In this document: in pieces, positions 51,910 through 64,000 of the stretch | How positions within the stretch are numbered: position 1 is the stretch's first letter | How the letters are laid out: each line of letters starts with the position of its first letter | From: Nitrospirota bacterium | GTDB lineage: Bacteria; Nitrospirota; UBA9217 | Length of the DNA: 64,000 nucleotides | Assembly (NCBI GenBank): GCA_035623825.1 | Contig: DASPSR010000028.1 | Location: 1 to 64,000, forward strand | Reading direction: 5' to 3' | Notes under the pieces: model-generated | What the model saw: only the letters and a program-made list of their open reading frames with translations | Database searches by the model: none | What the model was told of the DNA's origin: nothing | Program-made: the position numbers and the translations under genes

Positions 51910-52909
51910 ACTGTTCGATCCCCTTGGCGATGGCCTCGGCCGCCTTTGCTCGGTCCTGGTCCATGCCGACCTCTACCATTGCCGCGGCTGCGTCCATTGC
52001 CTTAAGCCCGGCAATCGGGGCCTGCACAGGCTCTGCGCCCTCTCCGCCCCCGAGCTGCCGCGCAAGTTTCCTGCCGAAACTGCCGCTCTCTTTCATATGC
52101 GCGGCCTGCTGCCTGCCCCAGAGTTTCTCCTGCTCTTCGCTCCCCGCTTCAAAACTGAGAAAATCCCGGTTTGCGGGCCGGGTCGCCTCCTGCCCCGCCA
52201 GATCATCATCGGGGTCCAGAATATAGACCCGCCCAGCCGAACCGGCTGCGGCATGGATGCTCACTATAAGCGTCGCCCCGGCAGCGTTCGCGATTCCGGC
52301 CCTCTCGTCGAGCGAGAGCGCCTGGTCCCTTTCCCTGGTCAGGACTACCCAGAGATGGCTGTCCCTCTGCAGAATTCTTCTGACCGCCTGCGCAAGTTCG
52401 AGGGTCAGCGACTTTTCCTGCCCCCGCGCCGTCACGATTCCCGTGTCCCTGCCTCCGTGCCCTGCGTCGAGAACGACCACGACGGGCTTATCTGCTTGCA
52501 CGGCCGGGGCCGAAGAAGCCGTGCCCTTCGCGATGTCGAGAACGATCCGGTCGGGCCCCCGGAGCACAAAATCCTTGACGTCTCCAGCCGCAGCGTCCAG
52601 ATGGATCAAGATAACGTTCCTGCCTGCCTCCTCCTTCGATTCCACACCGCTCACCACACCGTCATGGATGACCGGCAGCTGCGCCTTGAGGCTGAAGGGA
52701 CCCTCGTAGGCGGAAAAGAGAAGCACTCTGCCCTCGGCGGTTCTCGTCAGGACATAGGGGGCCGCGGCCTCGATCTCGAAAACGATCCGTGTGAAGGCCG
52801 CATAAGAAAAATACCGCACGCCCCTCACCGTGAGTCCCTTTTCTGCTGAAAACGTGATGGCAGGCACCAACAAGAGGGACACAAAAATAAGCAAAACCAG
52901 CCTTCGCAT
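51890..52909 (-). CDS. N-acetylmuramoyl-L-alanine amidase (AMIN + Amidase_3)
   Basis: Signal peptide, AMIN (TRIVFE, PDRIVLDI), LDAGHGG.D.G, EK, SIHA, VEVG. Confidence 0.85.
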   Translation of the reverse strand: MRRLVLLIFVSLLLVPAITFSAEKGLTVRGVRYFSYAAFTRIVFEIEAAAPYVLTRTAEGRVLLFSAYEGPFSLKAQLPVIHDGVVSGVESKEEAGRNVILIHLDAAAGDVKDFVLRGPDRIVLDIAKGTASSAPAVQADKPVVVVLDAGHGGRDTGIVTARGQEKSLTLELAQAVRRILQRDSHLWVVLTRERDQALSLDERAGIANAAGATLIVSIHAAAGSAGRVYILDPDDDLAGQEATRPANRDFLSFEAGSEEQEKLWGRQQAAHMKESGSFGRKLARQLGGGEGAEPVQAPIAGLKAMDAAAAMVEVGMDQDRAKAAEAIAKGIEQYARENR

Positions 52910-53033
52910 ACAAGTAGGCATAGTAGCACAACAAAAAGATTTGTGCAAGAAAAAGGCTGAAAAAACCCTAAAAAAACCAGTAAGTACAAGTAGAATTTGC
53001 ATTCCCACCCTCCGCGTGTTAATCTATCGGCAG

Positions 53034-54968
53034 ATGAACACCATAAAGATATTCGGAGAATCCGGCATGATCAGCCAGGCCATGCGCACTGCCTACGAGC
53101 ACCGTCCTCAGCAGATTGAGATGACCGTGGCCGTGGAGAAGGCGCTCGGCGCAAAGACGCATTTGATCGTCGAGGCGGGCACGGGCGTGGGCAAGAGCCT
53201 CGCGTACCTCGTGCCGGTAATCCTCTGGGCCAGAGAGGAGAACTGCCGTGCCGTCATTTCCACTTACACCAAAGCGCTGCAGCAGCAGCTCGTGGACAAG
53301 GACCTGCCCTTTCTGAAAAAGGTGGTCGGCGACTTTCGATTTGCCCTGTGCGTCGGCGGCGAAAACTATCTCTGCCTCCGGCGGTTCGACAATCTTCGCA
53401 TGGGCGACCTCTATGAGCAGTCCGAGGTCCAGGCATTGAACCGGCTGTTCGAATGGTCCACCGTGACGCGAACCGGCCTGCGTAGCGACCTCGATATCGA
53501 GCCGCCCCCCGCTCTCTGGGGCAAGGCCTGCCGCCAAGCCGACCTCTGCTTCAGCAAGGATTGCGGTTTTTATAAGGACTGCTTCTATCAGAAGGCCAAG
53601 GCCTACGAGCAGCAGGTGCAAATACTCGTGGCAAACCATCACTTGTTCTTTGCAGACATGGCCACAGGCGGCAACGTGTTGCCGCATTATAAAGCAGTGG
53701 TTTTCGACGAAGCGCACCAGGTCGAGGAGGTGGCAACGGATTATCTTGGCGTCGAGGTTACAAACTTCTCGGTTCGCTATCTGCTCGACTCGCTTCTGAG
53801 CCAGCGAACGCGCAAGGGCCTGCTCACGCGCCTCACCGCACAGGGTGCTGGGACGCAGATCGCGCGAAACATGGTCGACGCTCTCCGGGTCATATCTGAC
53901 AATTTCTTCCTGAACCTCCATCCCCTCCTTCACAAGGAACCGGCAATCAGGATTCGGAGGCAGAACTCCGTCCCCGACATCCTGAGCGAACCCCTCACGG
54001 AGCTGAAAGACGCGCTCCTCGAACTTACGGTCGAGACGCACGAAGAGGAACTGGAGGTCAAGGCGTTTGCCGGCCGGGCGCAGACGCTTGCGACTGCCGT
54101 GCGCGTGAACCTCAACCAGTCAGCAGAGGGATTCGTGTACTGGGCAGAGCGGGAGAACATGCGGTACCGGCTTGTTGCCTCACCCATCGATGTGGCCGAA
54201 ACGCTGCGTGAGAATCTCTTCGGAAAATTGGAGGTGGCAGTCCTTACCTCAGCCACGCTCTCGGCGGCTGGAACTTTTACGTTTATCAAGAGCCGTCTGG
54301 GCCTGGACGCGCCCATGGAACTCTTGCTCGACTCGCCCTTTGACTTCCAGAACCAGGCGATGCTCTACATCGCGTCCGGCCTTGACGACCAGCAAACAGC
54401 AGGTTATCAGGAAAAGTTCGATGAAGAGCTGGTATCCGTGCTTGCAATCACAAAAGGAAGAACACTTGTGCTGTTCACGAGCTACGGTCAGCTCAGGAAA
54501 AGTGCCGAGACGTTGCGGCAAGAGATACCGGACCTCGGTTTGCTATGTCAGGGAGAGATGCCGGCCTACCGGCTTATCGAGCAGTTTAAAAGCGCGCCGG
54601 ATACGGTCCTCATGGGAACAGCATCGTTCTGGCAGGGCATCGACATTTCCGGCGATGCACTCCAGTGCGTTGTGATCGCGAAGCTCCCCTTCGCCGTTCC
54701 CGATGACCCTATCGTTGAGGCGCGCATGGAGCGGCTCAAGAATCCCTTTCTTGAATATCAGGTCCCGCAAGCCACGCTGCTGTTTCGTCAGGGCTTCGGC
54801 AGGCTTATCCGAACCAAGACAGACAAAGGCGCCGTTGCCGTGCTCGACTCTCGCATCATGACCAAGAACTACGGTAAATTGTTTTTGCGGTCTATCCCGA
54901 AATGCCGGATAACGGATGAAAGGGAAGATCTCAAGAATTTTTTTGAAGGGCTACGGAAAGCGCAATAG
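53034..54968 (+). CDS. DinG/YoaA family ATP-dependent Fe-S DNA helicase
   Basis: EAGTGVGKS, NYLC plus Cys cluster, DEAH, SATL, LFTSY, FWQGID, QG.GRLIR; start moved to MNTIK. Confidence 0.92.
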   Translation: MNTIKIFGESGMISQAMRTAYEHRPQQIEMTVAVEKALGAKTHLIVEAGTGVGKSLAYLVPVILWAREENCRAVISTYTKALQQQLVDKDLPFLKKVVGDFRFALCVGGENYLCLRRFDNLRMGDLYEQSEVQALNRLFEWSTVTRTGLRSDLDIEPPPALWGKACRQADLCFSKDCGFYKDCFYQKAKAYEQQVQILVANHHLFFADMATGGNVLPHYKAVVFDEAHQVEEVATDYLGVEVTNFSVRYLLDSLLSQRTRKGLLTRLTAQGAGTQIARNMVDALRVISDNFFLNLHPLLHKEPAIRIRRQNSVPDILSEPLTELKDALLELTVETHEEELEVKAFAGRAQTLATAVRVNLNQSAEGFVYWAERENMRYRLVASPIDVAETLRENLFGKLEVAVLTSATLSAAGTFTFIKSRLGLDAPMELLLDSPFDFQNQAMLYIASGLDDQQTAGYQEKFDEELVSVLAITKGRTLVLFTSYGQLRKSAETLRQEIPDLGLLCQGEMPAYRLIEQFKSAPDTVLMGTASFWQGIDISGDALQCVVIAKLPFAVPDDPIVEARMERLKNPFLEYQVPQATLLFRQGFGRLIRTKTDKGAVAVLDSRIMTKNYGKLFLRSIPKCRITDEREDLKNFFEGLRKAQ

Positions 54969-55069: not shown

Positions 55070-57019
55070 TCAGGAGGAGCAATGCTTTTTGAATACCAGG
55101 AGGCCCAGGGGTGGCAGAGTGAGCGAGAGCGAATGTCGCCTGCCGTGGATGGGCACGGCTTCACCCTCCGCACCCCCTGAGTTCCCGTATCCATCACCTC
55201 CGTATTCCGTGGCGTCGCTGTTCAACACCTCTTTCCACCAGCCTCCCTCGGGGATCCCCACACGGTAGTTGATTCGCGCAAGGGGCGTGAAGTTGAAAAC
55301 CGCTAGGAATACATCCGTTGTTTTTCTGCTCCTGCGGATGAAACTGATGACGCTCTGCTCCTGATCGCTGAAATCGACCCACTCGAACCCCGTATGATCG
55401 AAATCGGTCTCATGGAGAGAAGGCTCCATGCGGTAGATCAGGTTCAGGTCCCGAACCCACTGCCAAACCCCGCGATGCTCTTGATAACGCAACAGGTGCC
55501 AGTCGAGGCTCCGTTCATGGTTCCACTCATTCCATTGCCCGAATTCGCCACCCATGAACAGAAGTTTTTTACCTGGGTGCAGATACTGCATGCCAAGCAG
55601 AAGACGGAGGTTGGCCAGCTTCTGTTTTCCATTTCCCGGCATCCTGCCTGCAAGGGAACCCTTGCCGTGCACGACCTCGTCGTGGGACAGCGGGAGCATG
55701 AAGTTTTCAAAGAACGAGTACCAGATGCTGAAGGTGATCAAGCCCTGGTGGTACTTGCGGAAGATCGGGTCCGTGGAATAGTATTCCAGCGTATCGTGCA
55801 TCCATCCCATGTTCCACTTCATGCCGAAACCGAGTCCACCCACGTGCGCCGGCCTTGAGACCATGGGCCAGGCTGTGGACTCCTCGGCAATTGTCTGAAC
55901 GTCTGGGAACATCCGGTATACTTCACGGTTCAGGCTCCGGAGGAAATCAATCGCCTCAAGGTTCTCATTGCCGCCATAGGAATTCGGAATCCAATCGCCC
56001 TCTTTGCGCGCGTAGTCGAGGTAAAGCATGGAAGCGACCGCGTCGATCCTGAGACCGTCGGCGTGATATTTGTCAAGCCAAAACAGGGCGTTGCTGATCA
56101 GGAAATTGCGAACCTCGTACCTGCCGTAGTTGAAAATGCAGCTGCTCCACTCCGGATGGAACCCCTTTTTTGGGTCCGCGTGCTCATACAAGTGCGTTCC
56201 GTCGAAATATACAAGGCCGTGGCTGTCGTCCGGGAAATGGGATGGTACCCAGTCGAGGATCACGCCGATCCCCTCCTTATGAAGGCGGTCGATGAGATGC
56301 ATGAAGTCCTGAGGACTGCCGTACCTGCTGGTGGGCGCGAAGTATCCGGTGATCTGGTAACCCCAGGATCCGTAGAAGGGGTGCTCCATCACCGGCGTGA
56401 ATTCCACGTGGGTGAAGCCCCCCTCCTTGAGGTACGTGGCGAGGGGGTCCGCCAGTTCCCGATACGTGAAGGAGCGGCTGTTCTCCTCGGGAATCCTGCG
56501 CCACGATCCGGGGTGGATTTCGTACACGGAGATCGGCGAGTTCAGCGAATTTCTGCCGTGTCGGTCTCTCATCCAGTCGGCGTCGCTCCACGCATACGAT
56601 GTATCCCACACGATTGATGCAGTTCTTGGCGGGACCTCCCAGAAGAACGCAAAGGGGTCGCCCTTGGTTGCCTCGTGATTATTTATGCGGGAGCGGATGT
56701 GATACTTGTACAGCGTTCCGCGAGATACCCCAGGGATGAAACCTTCCCATATGCCCGAGCCGTCATCCCTCACGCGAAGCGCATGAGAATTTTTGTTCCA
56801 TCCGTTGAAGTCTCCGATCACCGACACCTGTGCCGCATTTGGTGCCCAGACCGCGAAGAGGGTTCCTTCCATACCGTCCGAGGCCATGATGTGGGAGCCG
56901 AGCTTCTCATAGAGCCGGAAGTGGTTTCCCTCCTTAAAGAGGTAGATATCGTGGTCCGTCAGGAGGCTCACGCCGTGAAGCACGGCGCTCTTTCTTTTTT
57001 TCTCGCTTTTAACTTTCAT
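55070..57019 (-). CDS. glgB: 1,4-alpha-glucan branching enzyme
   Basis: WAPNA, SWGYQ, DWVPSHF, LRIDAVASMLY, AEEST, LSHDEVVHGK. Confidence 0.97.
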   Translation of the reverse strand: MKVKSEKKRKSAVLHGVSLLTDHDIYLFKEGNHFRLYEKLGSHIMASDGMEGTLFAVWAPNAAQVSVIGDFNGWNKNSHALRVRDDGSGIWEGFIPGVSRGTLYKYHIRSRINNHEATKGDPFAFFWEVPPRTASIVWDTSYAWSDADWMRDRHGRNSLNSPISVYEIHPGSWRRIPEENSRSFTYRELADPLATYLKEGGFTHVEFTPVMEHPFYGSWGYQITGYFAPTSRYGSPQDFMHLIDRLHKEGIGVILDWVPSHFPDDSHGLVYFDGTHLYEHADPKKGFHPEWSSCIFNYGRYEVRNFLISNALFWLDKYHADGLRIDAVASMLYLDYARKEGDWIPNSYGGNENLEAIDFLRSLNREVYRMFPDVQTIAEESTAWPMVSRPAHVGGLGFGMKWNMGWMHDTLEYYSTDPIFRKYHQGLITFSIWYSFFENFMLPLSHDEVVHGKGSLAGRMPGNGKQKLANLRLLLGMQYLHPGKKLLFMGGEFGQWNEWNHERSLDWHLLRYQEHRGVWQWVRDLNLIYRMEPSLHETDFDHTGFEWVDFSDQEQSVISFIRRSRKTTDVFLAVFNFTPLARINYRVGIPEGGWWKEVLNSDATEYGGDGYGNSGGAEGEAVPIHGRRHSLSLTLPPLGLLVFKKHCSS

Positions 57020-57530
57020 GCTGTCCCCTCCGCCAGTGCGGCATAAGTTAATATTACCACATTAACCGCATAAGGACATAGGTTCGCACGAAAAAAGCAG
57101 CAGATGAAGCGGCTCCGCATCTCTGAATCAAACTACAGGTGATGTCCATACCGCATTTCCCTGGTCTTTGTCTTTTTAAGCGGCTGCCTCTGCCTCTGAG
57201 CCCTAAGCCTTTGGATGTAATAGAGACGAACGAGTGGAAAAGATCTTACAAGATTTTAAAGGAATAAATGAGCTGGCCAAGATCATGCCGACTGGATATG
57301 CAGGCCTCGATCCATCATTTGCCGTCCGGTCGGGAGGCTCATGCACGTTTGGAATTTTTCGGGGGAAACGTCTGATGATGGCAACTGGTTCCTGCATGCG
57401 GTCGGATGGAGGGCCGGCTCCGGTATGGAGTCGGGCGGGTCATGAACTATCTTTCTGATGCTTAGCTACGAAAGTGCACATGAGGCCTAAGTTGCCCTGA
57501 GTGGTTCGCGATACGTGGCCCGATGACCTA

Positions 57531-58478
57531 CTAGGACGACGTCGGCCTGTCCAGAAGTTCAACAGGATAGCCGTGCTCGCGCCAGGCGCTGAGCCCCCCG
57601 GCAAGCGGTCGGACGCGGATTATCCCGCGCTGGATCAACTGCATTGCCACTCTGGCGCTCGACGCCTCGTTGGGACATGTGCAATAGAGGACCACCTCGC
57701 GCTCCCGCGGCATGTCCGGTTGCTGCTTTAAAGATTCCAGCGGAAAGTGCAAGGCGCCTGGAATAATATACGGGTCTGCCTCAAAGTCAAGTGTGTGGCG
57801 TACATCGAGAATTATGATATCTTCACCTGCATCAATTTTCTGTTTCAGCTGTACCGGGGTTATGCGGGCGCTGAAGAGCTGGCGCAAAAAACGTCGTCGC
57901 AGAGCGTACTTCCGAAGGATATAGAATGCCAGGCCTCCGACCAAAAAAATCAAAACCGTGTTGCCAAATCGCAGCGCAAAGAAAATAGCGTCGTCCAGTT
58001 GTTCGCTGAACACGTAGCCAAGGACCGTGAACGAACCAACCCAGAGAATCGCCCCCAGGGCGTCAAAGAACAAAAAACGTGACAGATGCATGCGGACGAT
58101 GCCCGCTAACGGCGTCGTTACAGCGCTCAGGCCGGGGATGAATTTTGTCACGAGCAGAGAACGCTCGCCATAGCGCGCAAAGATGACTTCCGCCTTCCTC
58201 ACGCAGTCGTCGGGCGCGAGAGAAATGCGGCAGAGCCAGGATAATATCCGGCCGCCGCTACGTCGGCCCATACCGTACCAGAAAACATCTCCCAGCAGCG
58301 CAGCACAGACCCCGAGGCCGACGCAGACAGGTAAGCGCAAGTGCCCCATGCCGGCCAGCGCCCCGGCAGCGATGAACAGCGGCGCGCTCGGCAGGGGAAG
58401 GCCGATTGTTTCTGCGAGAACCCATAAGAACAGCACGGTGTACCCGTGCTCTATCAGGAAGGGCAAAATTTCATGCAT
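57531..58478 (-). CDS. DedA (SNARE_assoc) membrane domain fused to rhodanese domain
   Basis: E.IGLPLP, GD..WY..GR, KFIPG; then LDVR, IPGA, LYCTCPNEASSA, L.GG..AW. Confidence 0.9.
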   Translation of the reverse strand: MHEILPFLIEHGYTVLFLWVLAETIGLPLPSAPLFIAAGALAGMGHLRLPVCVGLGVCAALLGDVFWYGMGRRSGGRILSWLCRISLAPDDCVRKAEVIFARYGERSLLVTKFIPGLSAVTTPLAGIVRMHLSRFLFFDALGAILWVGSFTVLGYVFSEQLDDAIFFALRFGNTVLIFLVGGLAFYILRKYALRRRFLRQLFSARITPVQLKQKIDAGEDIIILDVRHTLDFEADPYIIPGALHFPLESLKQQPDMPREREVVLYCTCPNEASSARVAMQLIQRGIIRVRPLAGGLSAWREHGYPVELLDRPTSS

Positions 58479-58613
58479 CCTTAATTCCGTGGTGTAAAAT
58501 GAGCATATTGCTGATTCTAGTCTTCACTGGAGCGACATCGGTCGATCCTTGAACGAAACTCCACTGCTAACATTTTACGCGCTGCTTTAATTTGCCGATC
58601 GGGTAATACCCTC

Positions 58614-59261
58614 TCAATAGGCATACTTTTCCAATTTCTCCAGCACTTCTACGTGCAGGAATTCTGAGGGAACAATACGGAACTCCACTATATTGCTTCT
58701 TGTCTCATTCGGGATGGTCGGTTGGACGGCGCTAGCAAAGTAGGGCGCATATCTTATACCGAGTTCGGGCTCCAAGTGAAACAGGGCATCCTGAATGAAC
58801 GCGGTCATTTGCTGCACTTTCATCCTCTCCATGATAGTAGCATCCGTCATCCCGTACGAAGGGTAGCGGCCGATGATCAGCACCTGGCTGATCTCGGACC
58901 TCATATGGTCATCCGTCATAAGGGACATAAAGATGCGGGAGACCTTCTGCAAATCTTCCCGTGCCGAGGCCTTCGGAGTTCCATCCTTAGAAAACAAAAG
59001 TGACGTATCCATGAGAATAGAACTCGTCTTGACCTTGAGTCCACTGATCGATTTTGCCCCGAATTCCTTCTCGAATATCGCGTTTATGCCCTTGGTAAAT
59101 TCGTTTCGCGGCTGTGAAAGCGCAAGGGCGGGTTCCAGAAACCGCTGGATCTTGACCGCCCGGTAATAGAGGAGTGCGCTCAACAGCACCAAACCAATCA
59201 GCGTGAAGCTGAGGATCGGTCCCGCGGGCGGCACATATTTCAGCAGGGCTTTGACGTTCAT
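58614..59261 (-). CDS. bitopic membrane protein with degenerate OmpA/MotB/ZorB-like domain
   Basis: One N-terminal TM; SLLFSKDG, ISQVLIIG and NIVEFRI echo OmpA-fold elements; ATGA overlap with the upstream regulator. The fold call is an inference. Confidence 0.6.
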   Translation of the reverse strand: MNVKALLKYVPPAGPILSFTLIGLVLLSALLYYRAVKIQRFLEPALALSQPRNEFTKGINAIFEKEFGAKSISGLKVKTSSILMDTSLLFSKDGTPKASAREDLQKVSRIFMSLMTDDHMRSEISQVLIIGRYPSYGMTDATIMERMKVQQMTAFIQDALFHLEPELGIRYAPYFASAVQPTIPNETRSNIVEFRIVPSEFLHVEVLEKLEKYAY

Positions 59262-60148
59262 GGTGCCGATTCCTCCAGGAGATTCAGCTTTTTGACGGCC
59301 GTTTTGAAGTCCGCCTCGGAGACGTTGGTCGGCTGATGGATGGCCTTATTCCGCAATCCCAGCAAATCACTGAAGAGTTCCCTTTTGAAGTGGCTGATGC
59401 GGCGTCCCTGCTCCATCTCTTTCAGGCCTTCGGAGAGTGCGGGGAACGTCCTGCCGGTCGCCGCCTGGGTGAATTCCTTCAGCCGATTTTCCAGATGATA
59501 TCCGAGCAGGAGGGCGGCCACGACCTTCTCCCCGGTCCTATAATATTCCAATGCCTGCTCGGCCGACACGTTGCCTTTGACGATGCGGATATTCTCCGTT
59601 GATTCGATTTCGCCAGGGGCCAGATGCTGTATTTTTTGATAGACCTCCAGGCACTTGTCAATCATGTTCTTCTCAAGATAGGTCTCGGCAAGGAGAAAAA
59701 GATCCCGGATGCTTTCCGCGCCTTCCTGCTGCTTCTTGGAAAAGGAATAGGCGCGACGGAGAGCATCCGTCTTGTCGTCCTTCTTGTCGAGCACGTCGAA
59801 ATGCCTGGCCCAGCGCTTGCCCTTCAGCACATTGTCCTTCGTGAAGCGGAAAAGTCGTTCCGAAACCTCGCTCTTGTCCAGCTTCCCGCTGATAACGATG
59901 ATGTTCAGCGTCGGGTGGGTTTCAAAGAGATCCGGCAAGGCGTCGATCCCTTCGTTCATCCGGTCGAACTCTATATCGAGCGTCATGAGGTCGAATACCT
60001 GAGTCGTCAGGACACGCAGTGCATCCCTGACGCTGACCGCCTCGTGAAACCGCAGGTCGGGCTCGTCACCCCCGAGCGCCCGCTGAATTTCGAGTTTGAG
60101 GAGCTCACGGTCCTCGTAGTCGTCGTCGGCGATGAGCACCTTAAACAT
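59258..60148 (-). CDS. response regulator REC-TPR-HEPN(DUF4145-like)
   Basis: VLIADDD, LDIEF, ISG, LDKK receiver residues; one TPR-like hairpin; C-terminal AALLLGYHLE..LK ... LRNKAIH. Confidence 0.8.
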   Translation of the reverse strand: MFKVLIADDDYEDRELLKLEIQRALGGDEPDLRFHEAVSVRDALRVLTTQVFDLMTLDIEFDRMNEGIDALPDLFETHPTLNIIVISGKLDKSEVSERLFRFTKDNVLKGKRWARHFDVLDKKDDKTDALRRAYSFSKKQQEGAESIRDLFLLAETYLEKNMIDKCLEVYQKIQHLAPGEIESTENIRIVKGNVSAEQALEYYRTGEKVVAALLLGYHLENRLKEFTQAATGRTFPALSEGLKEMEQGRRISHFKRELFSDLLGLRNKAIHQPTNVSEADFKTAVKKLNLLEESAP

Positions 60149-61175
60149 CGGGTGCCTCCTCGACGAAGGGAAGATTGATGATTATTTCCGTTCCAGTGCC
60201 GGGAGCCGTATATCCCTTGCCGATTCTGATTTTTCCGGCGTGGAGACCGACAACGTATTTGGCAAAATAGAGCCCCTGCCCCCAGCTCTCGCCGATGCCT
60301 CTCCCCTTATAAAAGCACTGGTCCGCTTGCTGCTCATCCATCCCGACTCCCTCGTCCCGTACGGAGACCGTCACATATCGTCTGCCGACGTCCCGGTCCA
60401 TCGCGCATGACACCTGAACGCGCGCGCGTGGCTGGCCCGGTTTTTTATACTTGACGGCATTGTCTATTACATTTTCAAACACCGTCTTCAGCAGCGGCGG
60501 TGCTGCATAGATCATTGGCACATTCATGCTCTCATGGATCGTGATGTCGGCGAGGTCGCCGTATTGAACTGCCAAGTCCCCAAGCATGGTCCTGAGGTCG
60601 CAATTCTTGAACTCGACCAGGCTCGCCTCGCGCTCATCGGATATTTTTTTAAATATCTGGATGTCGGCAAACAATTTGTCCAGATTGTCGTCAATGCGCT
60701 CTCTTGAGTCCTGCGGAAGACCGGGAAGCAGGTCGATCCTTCGCTTGATCCTCCCAAGGTTATTTTTGAATTCATGCCCTATCGTTGCAGAGATGTAGCG
60801 GATAAATTCGTTCCGCCTCGCTATTTCCTGGTTTTTAAGTACGAGCAGCATGTTCTCTCGCGCTCTCCTCTGTTTTTGCTGGTAGACGACGGAGAGATAC
60901 AGGCTGAAGGTGGTAAATGAAACGATCATGGTCACAAAAGCGTAATGGGCGATCCTGTTGGAGGCGTCGAGCTGTTCCTGCATGATGGAAAGGCGTTGGT
61001 CGAGGCTGGCCTCCGGAGGGGTCGCTCCCTTCCACGGCATCAGCCATAGTTCTAGACGACCAAAAGGCGGGATGAACCGGTCAAGGTAGACCATGCCAAG
61101 AACAAGCAATATAAACACCATCAGGGCGGTCAGCACCAGGGCCCTTAGCCTTTGATAAATGTCAGGGTCGGACAT
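60141..61175 (-). CDS. compact two-TM sensor histidine kinase
   Basis: Two TM helices, HEFKNNL H-box, ENVIDNAVKY, DEGVGM, G.GL; 8-nt overlap with the regulator. Confidence 0.9.
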   Translation of the reverse strand: MSDPDIYQRLRALVLTALMVFILLVLGMVYLDRFIPPFGRLELWLMPWKGATPPEASLDQRLSIMQEQLDASNRIAHYAFVTMIVSFTTFSLYLSVVYQQKQRRARENMLLVLKNQEIARRNEFIRYISATIGHEFKNNLGRIKRRIDLLPGLPQDSRERIDDNLDKLFADIQIFKKISDEREASLVEFKNCDLRTMLGDLAVQYGDLADITIHESMNVPMIYAAPPLLKTVFENVIDNAVKYKKPGQPRARVQVSCAMDRDVGRRYVTVSVRDEGVGMDEQQADQCFYKGRGIGESWGQGLYFAKYVVGLHAGKIRIGKGYTAPGTGTEIIINLPFVEEAPDV

Positions 61176-61414
61176 AATCATACAATTTATTACAAAACAC
61201 CGATTTTTACAACAGGAAAAGAAGCAGCACAATTGATGGTCTGTGCGGCCTCTGCACTTGTTCAGTGAGGCCCTATCTCTTCATGTGCCTCATGCTCACT
61301 GCGCCAAACAACTTTCGACTTTGCATTTTATACCGGCCTGACGCTCCGTCGCTCGGGCACCCTGTGCGTTGGCTGATTTCAAAAAAACCAGGGCAAGCAG
61401 TACTGTCCAGCGAA

Positions 61415-61743
61415 ACGGCGTAAAAAAATTGTTTGACACCTCCGACCGATCATAAAAGGTGGAACAGCGCCATGCCGGTCGGGAACAGTTAGAATAACAA
61501 CAGCATTGGCGCAAAACCAAAGTCGCTCCCAGGCCGTGTGTGAGGGAATGACACGGCAATCTTAACATCCGAAAGGGAGCAGATAGTGAGCCAGGGGTTC
61601 GGACGGCTCTGCAATGGGTTGCGGGTGCGAATAATGAAAACAACGAGCACCTGCATAGCCATGGACTCAATGAACCAACCTGTATGAAAGAGTGGTTTCA
61701 GCGTGAAAAACGGCAAGCATGACGAAGAAAGTGAGGAAGTCAA
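61415..61743 (-). pseudogene. mgtA: C-terminal remnant of Mg2+-transporting P-type ATPase (mgtA-like)
   Basis: DFLTFFVMLAVFHA, frameshift, LFHTGWFIES..QVLVVFIIRT..P..SRP, FGF.P, then VKQFFY in another frame; no N-terminal part. Confidence 0.8.
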
Positions 61744-61777
61744 GTCACCGTTCGTGCTAAAATAGTAAGATACTTCC

Positions 61778-64000
61778 ATGCTCGACAATCTCATCATAGA
61801 AGGGGCGAGACAGAACAACCTCAAGAACATATCCCTCGTCATCCCCCACAACCAGGTGACAGTGGTCACGGGCCTCTCGGGCTCGGGCAAGTCCTCCCTT
61901 GCCTTTGACACGATCTTTGCCGAGGGACAGTGGCGATATATCGAGTCCCTCTCTGCCTACGCGCGCATGTTCCTCGAGAAGGTGAGCAGGCCTGAGCTGG
62001 ATGCAATCCGGAACGTACGGCCCGCTGTCGCCCTGGAGCAGAGAAACCCGGTCAAGACGTCACGTTCCACGGTGGGGACGGTCACTGAGGCAGCAGATTA
62101 TCTGAGAATCCTGTATGCGAAAATCGGGAGGATCTTCTGCCCCCGCTGCGGAAGCGAGGTCAAACAGTTTAACTCCTTGTCAGTGGGGGACGAGATCCTG
62201 CGACTCTATCGTGACCAGAGGTTGCAGGTCCTCTTCCCCGTCGCAGTGCCGAAGGGAGAGCTCCACAATGTCCTGACGGATCTCACGAGGAGAGGGTTCG
62301 GAAGGGTGAAGACGGAGGCCGGGCTCACGGATGCGGACGCGGTCTCGGAACTCCCGCAGGAACCATCCGAGATCTTCGTGATCCTTGACAGGATCGTCGT
62401 GAGGCCCGGGGTCCGTTCCCGTCTTGCAGAATCCCTTGAGACCGCCTTTCTCGAAGGTACAGGCGAGGCGGTGATCGAGACGGAAGGGCAGGTCAGGCGG
62501 TACTCGCTCGCACTTCGGTGTATGAACTGCGGCATTTCATTCGAGCGCCCCCGGCCTCTGCTCTTCTCCTTCAATCATCCCATTGGCGCATGCCCAGAAT
62601 GCAAGGGGTTCGGCAACGTCCTTCGTTACGACGAAAATTTAATTCTGCCTGACCTCTCCCTCAGCCTCGAGGAAGGGGCCATCGAACCATGGACCAAGCC
62701 CGCCTACCGGTGGTGGATGGAGCAGATGCTCGAAGGAGCCCCAAAAGAAAAGATCGACACCGCGCGGCCGTTCCATGACCTTTCGAAGCGGGCCCGCTCC
62801 CTTGTCTTCAAGGGCTCGGATGCCTTCTACGGAGTAAATGACTTCTTCGAGCATCTCGAAAAGAAACGCTACAAACTCCACGTGCGGGTCTTCTTGAGCA
62901 GGTACCGGAGAGCTGTCACCTGCTCCGCGTGCGGGGGGACAAGGCTCAAGCCCGAGGCGCTGCAGGTGAAGATTGCGGGTGTAAATGTGGCTGCGCTCTC
63001 GGCCATGCCGGTGGAACAGCTCAATGAGTGGTTCCGTAACCTCGCACTCTCCGATTTCGAACGCCGGATGTCCCGGGAGCTCGTACGTCGCATAGTGCTC
63101 AAGCTTGCATTTCTTCAGAGTGTCGGCCTCGGTTATCTGACCCTTGACCGCCAGACGAGGACGCTTTCCGGCGGCGAAGCGCAGCGGGTGAACCTGGCGA
63201 ACCAACTCGCGTCGAAATTGACCGGCACCCTCTATGTGCTTGATGAGCCTAGCATCGGGCTCCATTCGCGTGATACGGTGAGGCTCGCACAGATTGTGCG
63301 TGAGCTTGCGGAAATGGGCAATACCGTGATTATCGTTGAGCACGACCGGACGCTCATCGAGGCCGGCGACCATGTCGTGGAGATGGGCCCTGCTGCTGGC
63401 GAGCGCGGCGGACGGGTGGTCTTCGCCGGCCCGATGGCCCCCTTCCGCGAGAGCTCCTGCCTTACAGCGCGGTATCTGCGCGGCGAGGAAAGGATCCCCG
63501 TCCCGAAGAGGAGAAGGAGACAGGAGAAGAGGTTTCTCGTGATCTCAGGAGCCGCTGAGCATAACCTCAAGGACATCGACGTGAAGATCCCGCTTCATAC
63601 TATGACCTGTATCACCGGCGTCTCGGGCTCGGGAAAGTCCACCCTTGTCCAGGACACGCTCTACCGGGCACTGGCGCGCTCTTTCAAAATGTCCTCTGAT
63701 ACGCCGGGGAAATACCGGGACATCTTCGGAATCGAACATGTGAAGGGAGTAAGGCTTATCGATCAGGAGCCCATCGGCAAGACGCCGAGGTCGAATCCTG
63801 TCACCTACGTGAAGGCATTCGATCTCATCCGGAAATTTTATGCGGAGCTCCCCGAGGCGAAGATGAAAGGGCTTACCCCCGGCCATTTCTCCTTCAATGT
63901 TGCAGGAGGACGGTGCGAGATGTGCAGGGGAAGCGGAGTTCGGAAGATCGAGATGTACGTCTTCGGGGACTTCTTCGTCACCTGTGATGAGTGCAGAGGC
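61778..64000 (+). CDS. uvrA: excinuclease ABC subunit A (runs past window end)
   Basis: GARQNNLKN, GLSGSGKSSLAFDT, FSFN.P.GACP.C.G, LSGGEAQR, LDEPSIGLH, second GVSGSGKS; absent from the ORF track because no stop lies in the window. Confidence 0.96.
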   Translation, partial: MLDNLIIEGARQNNLKNISLVIPHNQVTVVTGLSGSGKSSLAFDTIFAEGQWRYIESLSAYARMFLEKVSRPELDAIRNVRPAVALEQRNPVKTSRSTVGTVTEAADYLRILYAKIGRIFCPRCGSEVKQFNSLSVGDEILRLYRDQRLQVLFPVAVPKGELHNVLTDLTRRGFGRVKTEAGLTDADAVSELPQEPSEIFVILDRIVVRPGVRSRLAESLETAFLEGTGEAVIETEGQVRRYSLALRCMNCGISFERPRPLLFSFNHPIGACPECKGFGNVLRYDENLILPDLSLSLEEGAIEPWTKPAYRWWMEQMLEGAPKEKIDTARPFHDLSKRARSLVFKGSDAFYGVNDFFEHLEKKRYKLHVRVFLSRYRRAVTCSACGGTRLKPEALQVKIAGVNVAALSAMPVEQLNEWFRNLALSDFERRMSRELVRRIVLKLAFLQSVGLGYLTLDRQTRTLSGGEAQRVNLANQLASKLTGTLYVLDEPSIGLHSRDTVRLAQIVRELAEMGNTVIIVEHDRTLIEAGDHVVEMGPAAGERGGRVVFAGPMAPFRESSCLTARYLRGEERIPVPKRRRRQEKRFLVISGAAEHNLKDIDVKIPLHTMTCITGVSGSGKSTLVQDTLYRALARSFKMSSDTPGKYRDIFGIEHVKGVRLIDQEPIGKTPRSNPVTYVKAFDLIRKFYAELPEAKMKGLTPGHFSFNVAGGRCEMCRGSGVRKIEMYVFGDFFVTCDECRG

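Follow-up and report, generated by a model that had tools for sequence, protein, structure and literature searches.

Three overlapping minus-strand genes in a 64,000-nucleotide (nt) stretch of DNA from a Nitrospirota bacterium (GenBank assembly GCA_035623825.1, contig DASPSR010000028.1, positions 1 to 64,000 of the forward strand; hereafter the window) encode a sensor histidine kinase, a response regulator that joins a receiver (REC) to a HEPN-like domain, and a degenerate MotB/ZorB-like membrane protein. The trio is a real and conserved two-component variant, undescribed as judged by literature searches, which combines an RNase-type output with a stator-derived accessory protein. The order and coupling of the genes, the conservation of catalytic and phospho-acceptor residues and the HEPN and ZorB/MotB affinities are established, and the function that we infer from them, namely that of a self-contained three-component module signalling from the envelope to RNA through a HEPN RNase, is somewhat favoured. 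The genes and their domains are as follows.

Positions 60141-61175, minus strand: sensor histidine kinase, 344 amino acids (aa); the longest open reading frame (ORF) begins at TTG 61232, the conserved start is ATG 61175
Positions 59258-60148, minus strand: response regulator, 296 aa, composed of the next three segments
Positions 59780-60148, minus strand: receiver, residues 1-123, with D8-D9-D10, the phospho-acceptor D58 (codon 59977-59975), S87 and K122
Positions 59564-59779, minus strand: helical linker, residues ~124-195, with one sub-threshold TPR-like hairpin
Positions 59261-59563, minus strand: HEPN-like domain, residues ~196-296, with the motif R266-N267-x3-H271 at 59353-59336
Positions 58614-59261, minus strand: single-pass membrane protein, 215 aa, ZorB/MotB-like fold, with a transmembrane (TM) helix at ~15-33 (59163-59219) and an OmpA-like region at ~70-200 (58662-59054)

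In the ORF list, the minus strand of 58614-61232 holds ORFs of 363 aa (read from TTG 61232), 296 aa and 215 aa. As an earlier reading made from the letters of this DNA (the sequence-only reading) had described, they overlap: the kinase stop codon (60141-60143) and the regulator ATG (60148-60146) share 8 nt (60141-60148), and the regulator stop and the ATG of the third gene are fused in an ATGA at 59258-59261, an overlap of 4 nt. The three genes are translationally coupled and form one operon.

The regulator carries a complete receiver, in which the acidic pocket, the phospho-acceptor aspartate, the Ser/Thr and the lysine are all present, and its output is not a DNA-binding domain; both points had been anticipated, and both hold. 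Its best receiver-level match among NCBIfam models is RssB (E-value (E) 1.9e-5, far under the cut-off). The proposed REC-TPR-HEPN layout stands in its HEPN part, where a HEPN-like domain with an invariant Rx4H motif is found, whereas the TPR part shrinks to one sub-threshold hairpin in a stretch of low model confidence. Indeed, the TPR_2 and TPR_1 matches of the linker in Pfam (E 0.013-0.017) remain under threshold, with TPR_2 at 16 bits against a cut-off of 27, and the single hairpin matches TPR_6, again below threshold, in 23/23 family members (best E 4.9e-4); no TPR repeat of the regulator rises above a family cut-off. Within the receiver, the alpha4-beta5 region contains an invariant basic stretch, K-D-N-V-L-K-G-K-R-W-A-R-H-F (residues ~101-122, window ~59783-59848, minus strand), in which N106, R112, W113, R115 and H116 are present in 85/85 sequences and the model confidence is low at residues 107-114. 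Such a stretch is unusual for receivers and could represent an RNA-binding or partner surface.

The assignment of the C-terminal domain to the HEPN superfamily, with DUF4145-like domains as the nearest relatives, is very probable on the basis of motif conservation and profile comparisons. The motif reads R266-N-K-A-I-H271 and fits the Rx4-6H pattern of HEPN domains; R266 and H271 are found in 85/85 sequences and N267 in 84/85, the family including pairs that share as little as 54% identity. At the profile level, residues 196-296 match best to DUF4145 (PF13643) and HepT-like (PF01934), and sub-threshold matches to the HEPN clan of Pfam were obtained across 23 members of the family, namely with DUF4145 in 15/23 (best E 3.7e-4), HepT-like in 8/23, HEPN_Swt1 in 3/23 and RiboL-PSP in 1/23. 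An alignment of the last 107 residues of the regulator (A4) was then compared by hhalign with alignments of DUF4145 (18 sequences) and of true HepT-like proteins (20 sequences) from genomes of the same phylum. A4 matched DUF4145 with a probability of 93.3% (E 2.8e-7, score 41.6, 93 columns), with the N, A and H of the motif aligned and 0/60 column shuffles exceeding 17.8. The match to HepT had a probability of 47% (score 28.2, 48 columns) with RNxxxH aligned, 0/60 shuffles exceeding 17.0 and the reversed template reaching 19.0, and it is level with the positive control, the comparison of HepT with DUF4145 as two accepted HEPN families (47%, score 27.7, 57 columns). The negative controls, in which A4 was compared with the kinase alignment (0.3%, score 15.0, 13 columns) and with the third-protein alignment (0.3%, score 14.1, 1 column), stayed low.

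Broader searches returned mostly the family itself. Residues 120-296 compared by phmmer with 1.84 billion representatives gave only the family, its fragments and TPR proteins, the latter matching within the linker, and an A4 profile search among proteins of 56-189 aa gave only 20 fragments of the same family. The best match in the ESM Atlas (0.88) belongs to a cluster with DUF4145 in 13% of its members, which is a lead only. Whole-chain fold searches (Foldseek against the PDB, VIA-align wide and Foldseek against viral structures) were filled by receivers and carry little information on the C-terminal domain; among the otherwise receiver matches in the PDB, Thermus thermophilus Csm6 (5fsh_B) appears at rank 41 with E 3.5e-4, a similarity that fits a layout of a sensor domain plus HEPN.

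The kinase has a HATPase_c match in Pfam (E 1.7e-14) and no HisKA match in the same database, and the NCBIfam models of EnvZ, CpxA and CreC align with it from the H-box through the C-terminus. The H-box histidine (H134 in the 344-aa numbering, codon 60776-60774) and the N, G1 and G2 boxes for ATP binding (N235/D238/N239, D274/G276/G278 and G299/G301) that define a two-component kinase are invariant in 18/18 aligned orthologues. In the N-terminal 100 residues, two hydrophobic membrane helices enclose a conserved loop ~45 residues long, and the second of them passes directly into the DHp domain, which is followed by HATPase_c, and there is neither a HAMP nor a PAS domain in the protein. This loop-only layout is typical of kinases that rely on an accessory membrane protein for sensing.

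The third protein is, as judged from its predicted structure, a degenerate MotB/ZorB-like protein, as the sequence-only reading had named it. The AlphaFold model (predicted local distance difference test, pLDDT, 82.5) shows a membrane helix extending into a long helix and then an alpha/beta domain, with a conserved juxtamembrane helix between the membrane helix and the OmpA-like domain. The five best Foldseek matches are all ZorB chains (8vvi_A at 2.4e-8, 8vvn, 8qyd), followed by OmpA-like domains and MotB, and YfiB is among the matches (6iki_B, E 5.3e-5); a weak ZorB match was also returned by PADLOC (E 6.4e-4). No Pfam family, OmpA PF00691 included, was found at E<=1, and no NCBIfam family. 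In canonical OmpA-like domains the peptidoglycan-binding motif is a strand carrying an aspartate, and the corresponding strand here reads G-R-Y-P-S. The membrane helix of MotB carries a proton-carrying aspartate, and neither D nor E occurs in the hydrophobic membrane helix in any of 22 aligned third-protein sequences. A MotA/ZorA-like gene is absent from the locus, and the four MotA_ExbB matches of the genome lie on other contigs (C13, C52 and C55, not C67). The label of a degenerate MotB/ZorB-like protein is accurate because the fold is that of ZorB and there is no acidic residue in the TM helix, no Pfam OmpA domain and no MotA/ZorA at the locus; as these terms are ordinarily understood, the protein can be neither a stator nor a Zorya unit.

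Across genomes the trio remains linked in nearly every locus. Full-length matches to the regulator are present in 12 genomes, with one further partial match, among 24 genomes of the same family, and in 0 of the other 16 relatives. In 11 loci fetched from these genomes the regulator and the third gene are adjacent in 11/11, and the kinase is present in 10/11, the last locus ending just beyond the regulator. The order kinase-regulator-third gene is kept in 14/14 loci from other families of the phylum, at identities of 58-66% for the kinase, 60-72% for the regulator and 37-47% for the third protein. Among 401 genomes sampled over the phylum, the third protein occurs in 48, the window's own genome counted, distributed by family as f1 33/63, f13 4/5, f25 3/4, f27 3/9, f24 2/14, f4 1/7 and f11 1/35, and it was found in none of the remaining sampled families (e.g., f9 0/76 and f17 0/40). 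A scan with one genome per species gave 80 loci, labelled Nitrospirota, Nitrospirae, Thermodesulfovibrionia/-ales, Candidatus Sulfobium or unclassified, the exception being two contigs of one bin marked Betaproteobacteria. All three genes are present in 78/80 of these loci; one of the other two ends at a contig edge and one (L089) is without the third gene. At L089:4947-5315 (plus strand) a GroES-like ORF of 122 aa lies where the third gene would be, and kinase and regulator are kept.

Divergence of the module follows taxonomy, with identity dropping from ~90% within the genus to 74-83% at the level of the family and to 60-72% once other families are compared. No fourth gene family accompanies the trio, the largest cluster of neighbours being present in 10/80 loci. 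The ten commonest neighbour families include radical SAM, Memo/AMMECR1, multihaem cytochrome, aminotransferase, glycosyltransferase, TPR, REC-PilZ and NHL proteins and one without a family, and no recognisable defence gene is among them. Since it is confined to one lineage and has housekeeping or metabolic neighbours, the module reads as lineage-specific, restricted to Thermodesulfovibrionia-type Nitrospirota, and not as a mobile defence island. The description of the segment as accessory-looking is not upheld: the G+C content is 0.49-0.58 over the trio versus 0.50-0.60 in the flanks, and the same-genus relative L003 keeps a neighbouring gene of the window. A recent insertion or island was considered and rejected, as the composition gives no hint of one and inheritance of the module looks vertical.

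These features can be assembled into a working model. A dimeric membrane kinase, which would expose only a short conserved loop to the periplasm and lacks its own sensor domain, would partner the MotB/ZorB-like protein, whose degenerate OmpA-like domain would report the state of the cell wall or envelope. The kinase would then phosphorylate D58 of the receiver, and phosphorylation-driven pairing of receivers would join two HEPN domains, the R-N-x3-H motifs of which would together make up an active RNase. Cleavage of RNA, leading to growth arrest or to the control of particular transcripts, would be the output rather than transcription. Gating by dimerisation is proposed because REC domains often dimerise upon phosphorylation and the active site of HEPN RNases is formed only in a dimer, as in Csm6/CARF, Ire1 and RNase L. 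By analogy with these enzymes, phosphorylation may gate the domain, which may act as an RNase on RNA targets of its own. Phosphotransfer from kinase to receiver would take place between the products of two adjacent genes that overlap by 8 nt. The fuller chain, in which a cell-wall-linked MotB-like co-sensor and a minimal kinase would together phosphorylate the receiver-HEPN protein into a dimeric RNase and so answer an envelope signal directly by cutting RNA, whether to enter dormancy, adapt to stress or abort an infection, is put forward tentatively, at rather less than an even chance.

Contact between the kinase and the third protein was addressed by complex prediction with kinase residues 1-140, which gave a score of 0.44 as compared to 0.03 for the best of 3 controls and thus lends weak support. 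At least 93% of contacts are shared between the runs, and the pLDDT of the partner is at least 71. The mark for this score is reached by 58/80 solved complexes and 2/110 mismatched pairs, and scores of 0.60 or below are found for only 7/80 solved complexes and for both of the mismatches that pass. The juxtamembrane helix of the third protein and the loop of the kinase are the best-conserved extracytoplasmic parts of each protein. With the conservation of the operon as prior, the predicted contact has roughly an even chance of being right.

Several observations weigh against this model. None of the HEPN models of Pfam reaches its curated cut-off for the window protein or for the 23 members, and the best HEPN matches of the window regulator are HEPN_Swt1 with 13.2 bits (cut-off 27.5) and DUF4145 with 12.9 bits (cut-off 23.1). 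The AlphaFold helices at 208-231, 238-247, 253-271 and 278-292 (pLDDT ~80-94) come from the full-length model, and the four-helix up-down bundle of a HEPN fold is putative; a profile of the A4 domain has no meaningful relative among PDB sequences, the best being cytochrome b562 (E 0.68). Many HEPN domains are non-catalytic. The linker between receiver and output is poorly modelled (pLDDT 33-50). For the third protein, basic residues lie on both sides of the membrane helix, and its topology, including the periplasmic position of the OmpA-like domain, is predicted from homology alone; the score of the predicted complex counts only as weak. In addition, the distribution is patchy within genera (g19 8/15, g10 3/6, g11 0/6), and some genomes hold 2-3 divergent copies, two patterns that also fit a conflict system. 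Indeed, six bins carry two or three copies of the trio. Five of these bins (L070, L096 and L102 in one genome; L066/L073; L056/L076; L101/L120; L049/L126) have regulators with 60-77% identity to each other, each copy being closer to one from another genome. Such divergent copies could reflect ancient paralogy, transfer within the class or the mixing of bins.

Patchiness and divergent copies are part of the case for an anti-phage or abortive infection role, in which the ZorB-like protein and the kinase would sense perturbation of the envelope by a phage and the phosphorylated receiver would switch on the HEPN RNase and so bring the infected cell to arrest, as a hybrid of Zorya and Detocs. ZorB chains are the best structural matches of the third protein, which also has its weak PADLOC match, the module is compact with flanks that are not conserved, HEPN RNases are common defence effectors according to the available part of the 2013 HEPN survey (PMC3710099), and the available part of the Detocs article offers a kinase-receiver-effector relay as a precedent in defence (10.1101/2023.01.24.525353). 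Against it stand the restriction of the 80 listed loci to Nitrospirota-type genomes, the ordinary company that the trio keeps, and an identity that follows taxonomy, with 60-72% conservation of regulator and kinase across families being unusual for fast-evolving defence genes. Neither a ZorA/MotA-like gene nor a stand-alone buffer receiver of the DtcB type is found at the locus, and PADLOC, run on the three proteins, returned only ZorB and PDC-M60B/C at E of at least 6e-4, that is, weak ZorB and REC-level matches, the presence of Detocs models in that release not being checked. The defence role suggested by the sequence-only reading has therefore gained no support from context and is unlikely; a physiological, lineage-specific role is favoured over it because kinase and regulator diverge slowly and in step with taxonomy.

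The nature of the output and the part played by the third gene can each be read differently. The HEPN-like domain might be a non-catalytic module binding RNA, nucleotides or proteins, which would make the regulator a phospho-controlled adaptor or anti-adaptor like RssB, or an RNA-binding protein of the antiterminator type. The RssB model is indeed the best receiver-level match, the TPR-like hairpin belongs to a class of elements that bind proteins, and several HEPN families without the catalytic motif act as binding domains, as stated in the part of the survey available (PMC3710099). The motif of the regulator, however, aligns with the catalytic RNxxxH of HepT-like RNases and persists almost without exception even between members that are only 54% identical. 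In HEPN families that are inactive the catalytic motif has usually been lost, and the adaptor explanation is decidedly unlikely. The third gene could instead be a mere passenger, a co-transcribed envelope protein with no part in sensing, the kinase sensing through its own loop and membrane helices. L089 shows that one locus in 80 keeps kinase and regulator without it, its product evolves much faster than the other two proteins across families (37-47% versus 60-72% identity), and the complex prediction is only weak. All the same, the gene is present in 79/80 loci, its start overlaps the regulator stop in the window, conservation outside the cytoplasm is concentrated in its juxtamembrane helix and in the kinase loop, and the predicted complex scores far above its controls, which makes a passenger very improbable.

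The regulator resembles Csm6/Csx1 of type III CRISPR systems (CARF-HEPN), as well as Ire1 and RNase L (kinase-KEN/HEPN), in all of which an N-terminal alpha/beta regulatory domain controls a C-terminal dimeric HEPN RNase. Here a histidine kinase would feed the sensor, a receiver that accepts phosphate, which takes the place of a cyclic-oligoadenylate-binding CARF or a Ser/Thr kinase domain, and there is no sequence relationship beyond the region of the HEPN motif. HepT, another HEPN protein, works with the MNT antitoxin, which is absent here. As for the sensing side, LiaFSR, BceAB-RS and YfiBNR are systems whose kinase or cyclase has hardly any domain outside the cytoplasm and depends on a membrane or envelope protein encoded alongside it. 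Among their accessory proteins, YfiB shares the OmpA-like fold with the third protein and the others are unrelated; their outputs are transcription or c-di-GMP, whereas here the output is a HEPN domain. Compared to ZorB of Zorya and to MotB, PomB and MotS, the third protein is without a MotA/ZorA partner gene at its locus, without the acidic TM residue and without a Pfam OmpA domain, and it is paired with a histidine kinase. Membership in Zorya was rejected for want of ZorA; an effector of the ZorC/D/E type gave no PADLOC match among the three proteins, and the flanks are not conserved.

Detocs resembles the trio in organisation, being a three-gene two-component-like operon in which the regulator carries an enzymatic effector and not a DNA-binding domain, as given in the available part of its description (10.1101/2023.01.24.525353). 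It comprises the kinase DtcA, the buffer receiver DtcB and the receiver-effector DtcC, with PNP, REase, TOPRIM and TM effectors, and the word HEPN occurs 0 times in the available portion of the main text (10.1101/2023.01.24.525353). The buffer receiver of Detocs is a stand-alone protein, and a MotB-like protein is not part of that system; the window trio has its kinase in the membrane and is without a buffer receiver. Membership in Detocs was rejected, as the trio has one receiver protein and its third gene encodes a membrane protein. The HEPN survey, in the part available, reports many HEPN fusions and none to a receiver, which it mentions only for a TM domain that occurs with a DUF4145-type HEPN or with a receiver (PMC3710099). 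The receiver protein of Ambrosia carries a wHTH (winged helix-turn-helix), according to the accessible part of its description, and HEPN is not mentioned in the paper on HEF_HK/Response_reg_2. Full-text literature searches gave no published description of a receiver-HEPN regulator, and the remark that the architecture is not that of a described system has held up.

The known outputs of response regulators are transcription, c-di-GMP turnover, methylesterase activity and proteolysis adaptors, and in Detocs an ATP nucleosidase. If the receiver does gate a HEPN RNase, direct cleavage of RNA would join these outputs and the regulator would be a simple RNase switchable by phosphorylation, that is, a prokaryotic counterpart of the logic of Ire1 and RNase L built from two-component parts. 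In parallel, a stator-like protein that has lost both motor partner and ion-binding residue is paired here with a histidine kinase, which suggests a way in which stator units have been re-used as envelope sensors and bears on how Zorya-type systems sense the envelope. The invariance of the catalytic residues makes the model directly testable by point mutants.

Upstream of the kinase lies one further element of the operon.

Positions 61184-61212, minus strand: candidate promoter, TTGTAA at 61212-61207, a 17-nt spacer and TAAATT at 61189-61184

The proposal that TTGTAA-17-TAAATT drives the three genes is sustained in that the sequence is present and that both hexamers, together with ATG 61175, are kept in 6/6 aligned upstream regions (the window and five orthologous loci of relatives); its resemblance to the sigma-70 consensus is limited to 8/12 identical positions, and it is absent from the output of a generic consensus promoter scan. 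Because the hexamers are conserved in all six regions, it is a plausible operon promoter despite the 8/12 match. Position 61212, previously taken as an end coordinate of the system, is the first base of the -35 hexamer and not a start codon. The kinase most likely starts at ATG 61175, giving 344 aa, because this start is conserved in the upstream alignment of orthologues. The -10-like element stops 8 nt ahead of this ATG with the same spacing in six orthologous loci, and no Shine-Dalgarno sequence is visible before it (61173-61212); the operon mRNA is thus probably leaderless, or may be nearly so. The sequencing runs carrying the stretch are peat-metagenome DNA only, with no RNA run listed.

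Around the operon, the placement between glgB and uvrA needs one addition, as a DedA/VTT-rhodanese fusion of 315 aa (57531-58478, minus strand) also lies between glgB and the trio. It has a DedA/VTT domain (Pfam, E 3.2e-15) and a C-terminal rhodanese domain (E 1.4e-11), and it scores 79 bits, under the cut-off of 115, against the NCBIfam model 'rhodanese-related (seleno)protein'. In the 14 distant loci, the trio had none of the window neighbours (glgB, DedA-rhodanese, uvrA and a DinG-like gene) next to it. Rfam models, scanned over 56500-62500, matched nothing at E<=1. On the other side, a gap of 545 nt (61233-61777) separates the kinase operon from the divergent uvrA and is not alignable with same-genus relatives beyond ~60 nt from the kinase start. 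Farther away, the ORF at 52830-54968 (plus strand), DinG-like by reading of its translation with no family search run, has a listed GTG start that adds ~80 low-complexity-looking residues before the helicase part, and the true start is probably downstream. In the same-genus relative L003, the gene found to adjoin the trio is again that of the DedA-rhodanese protein.

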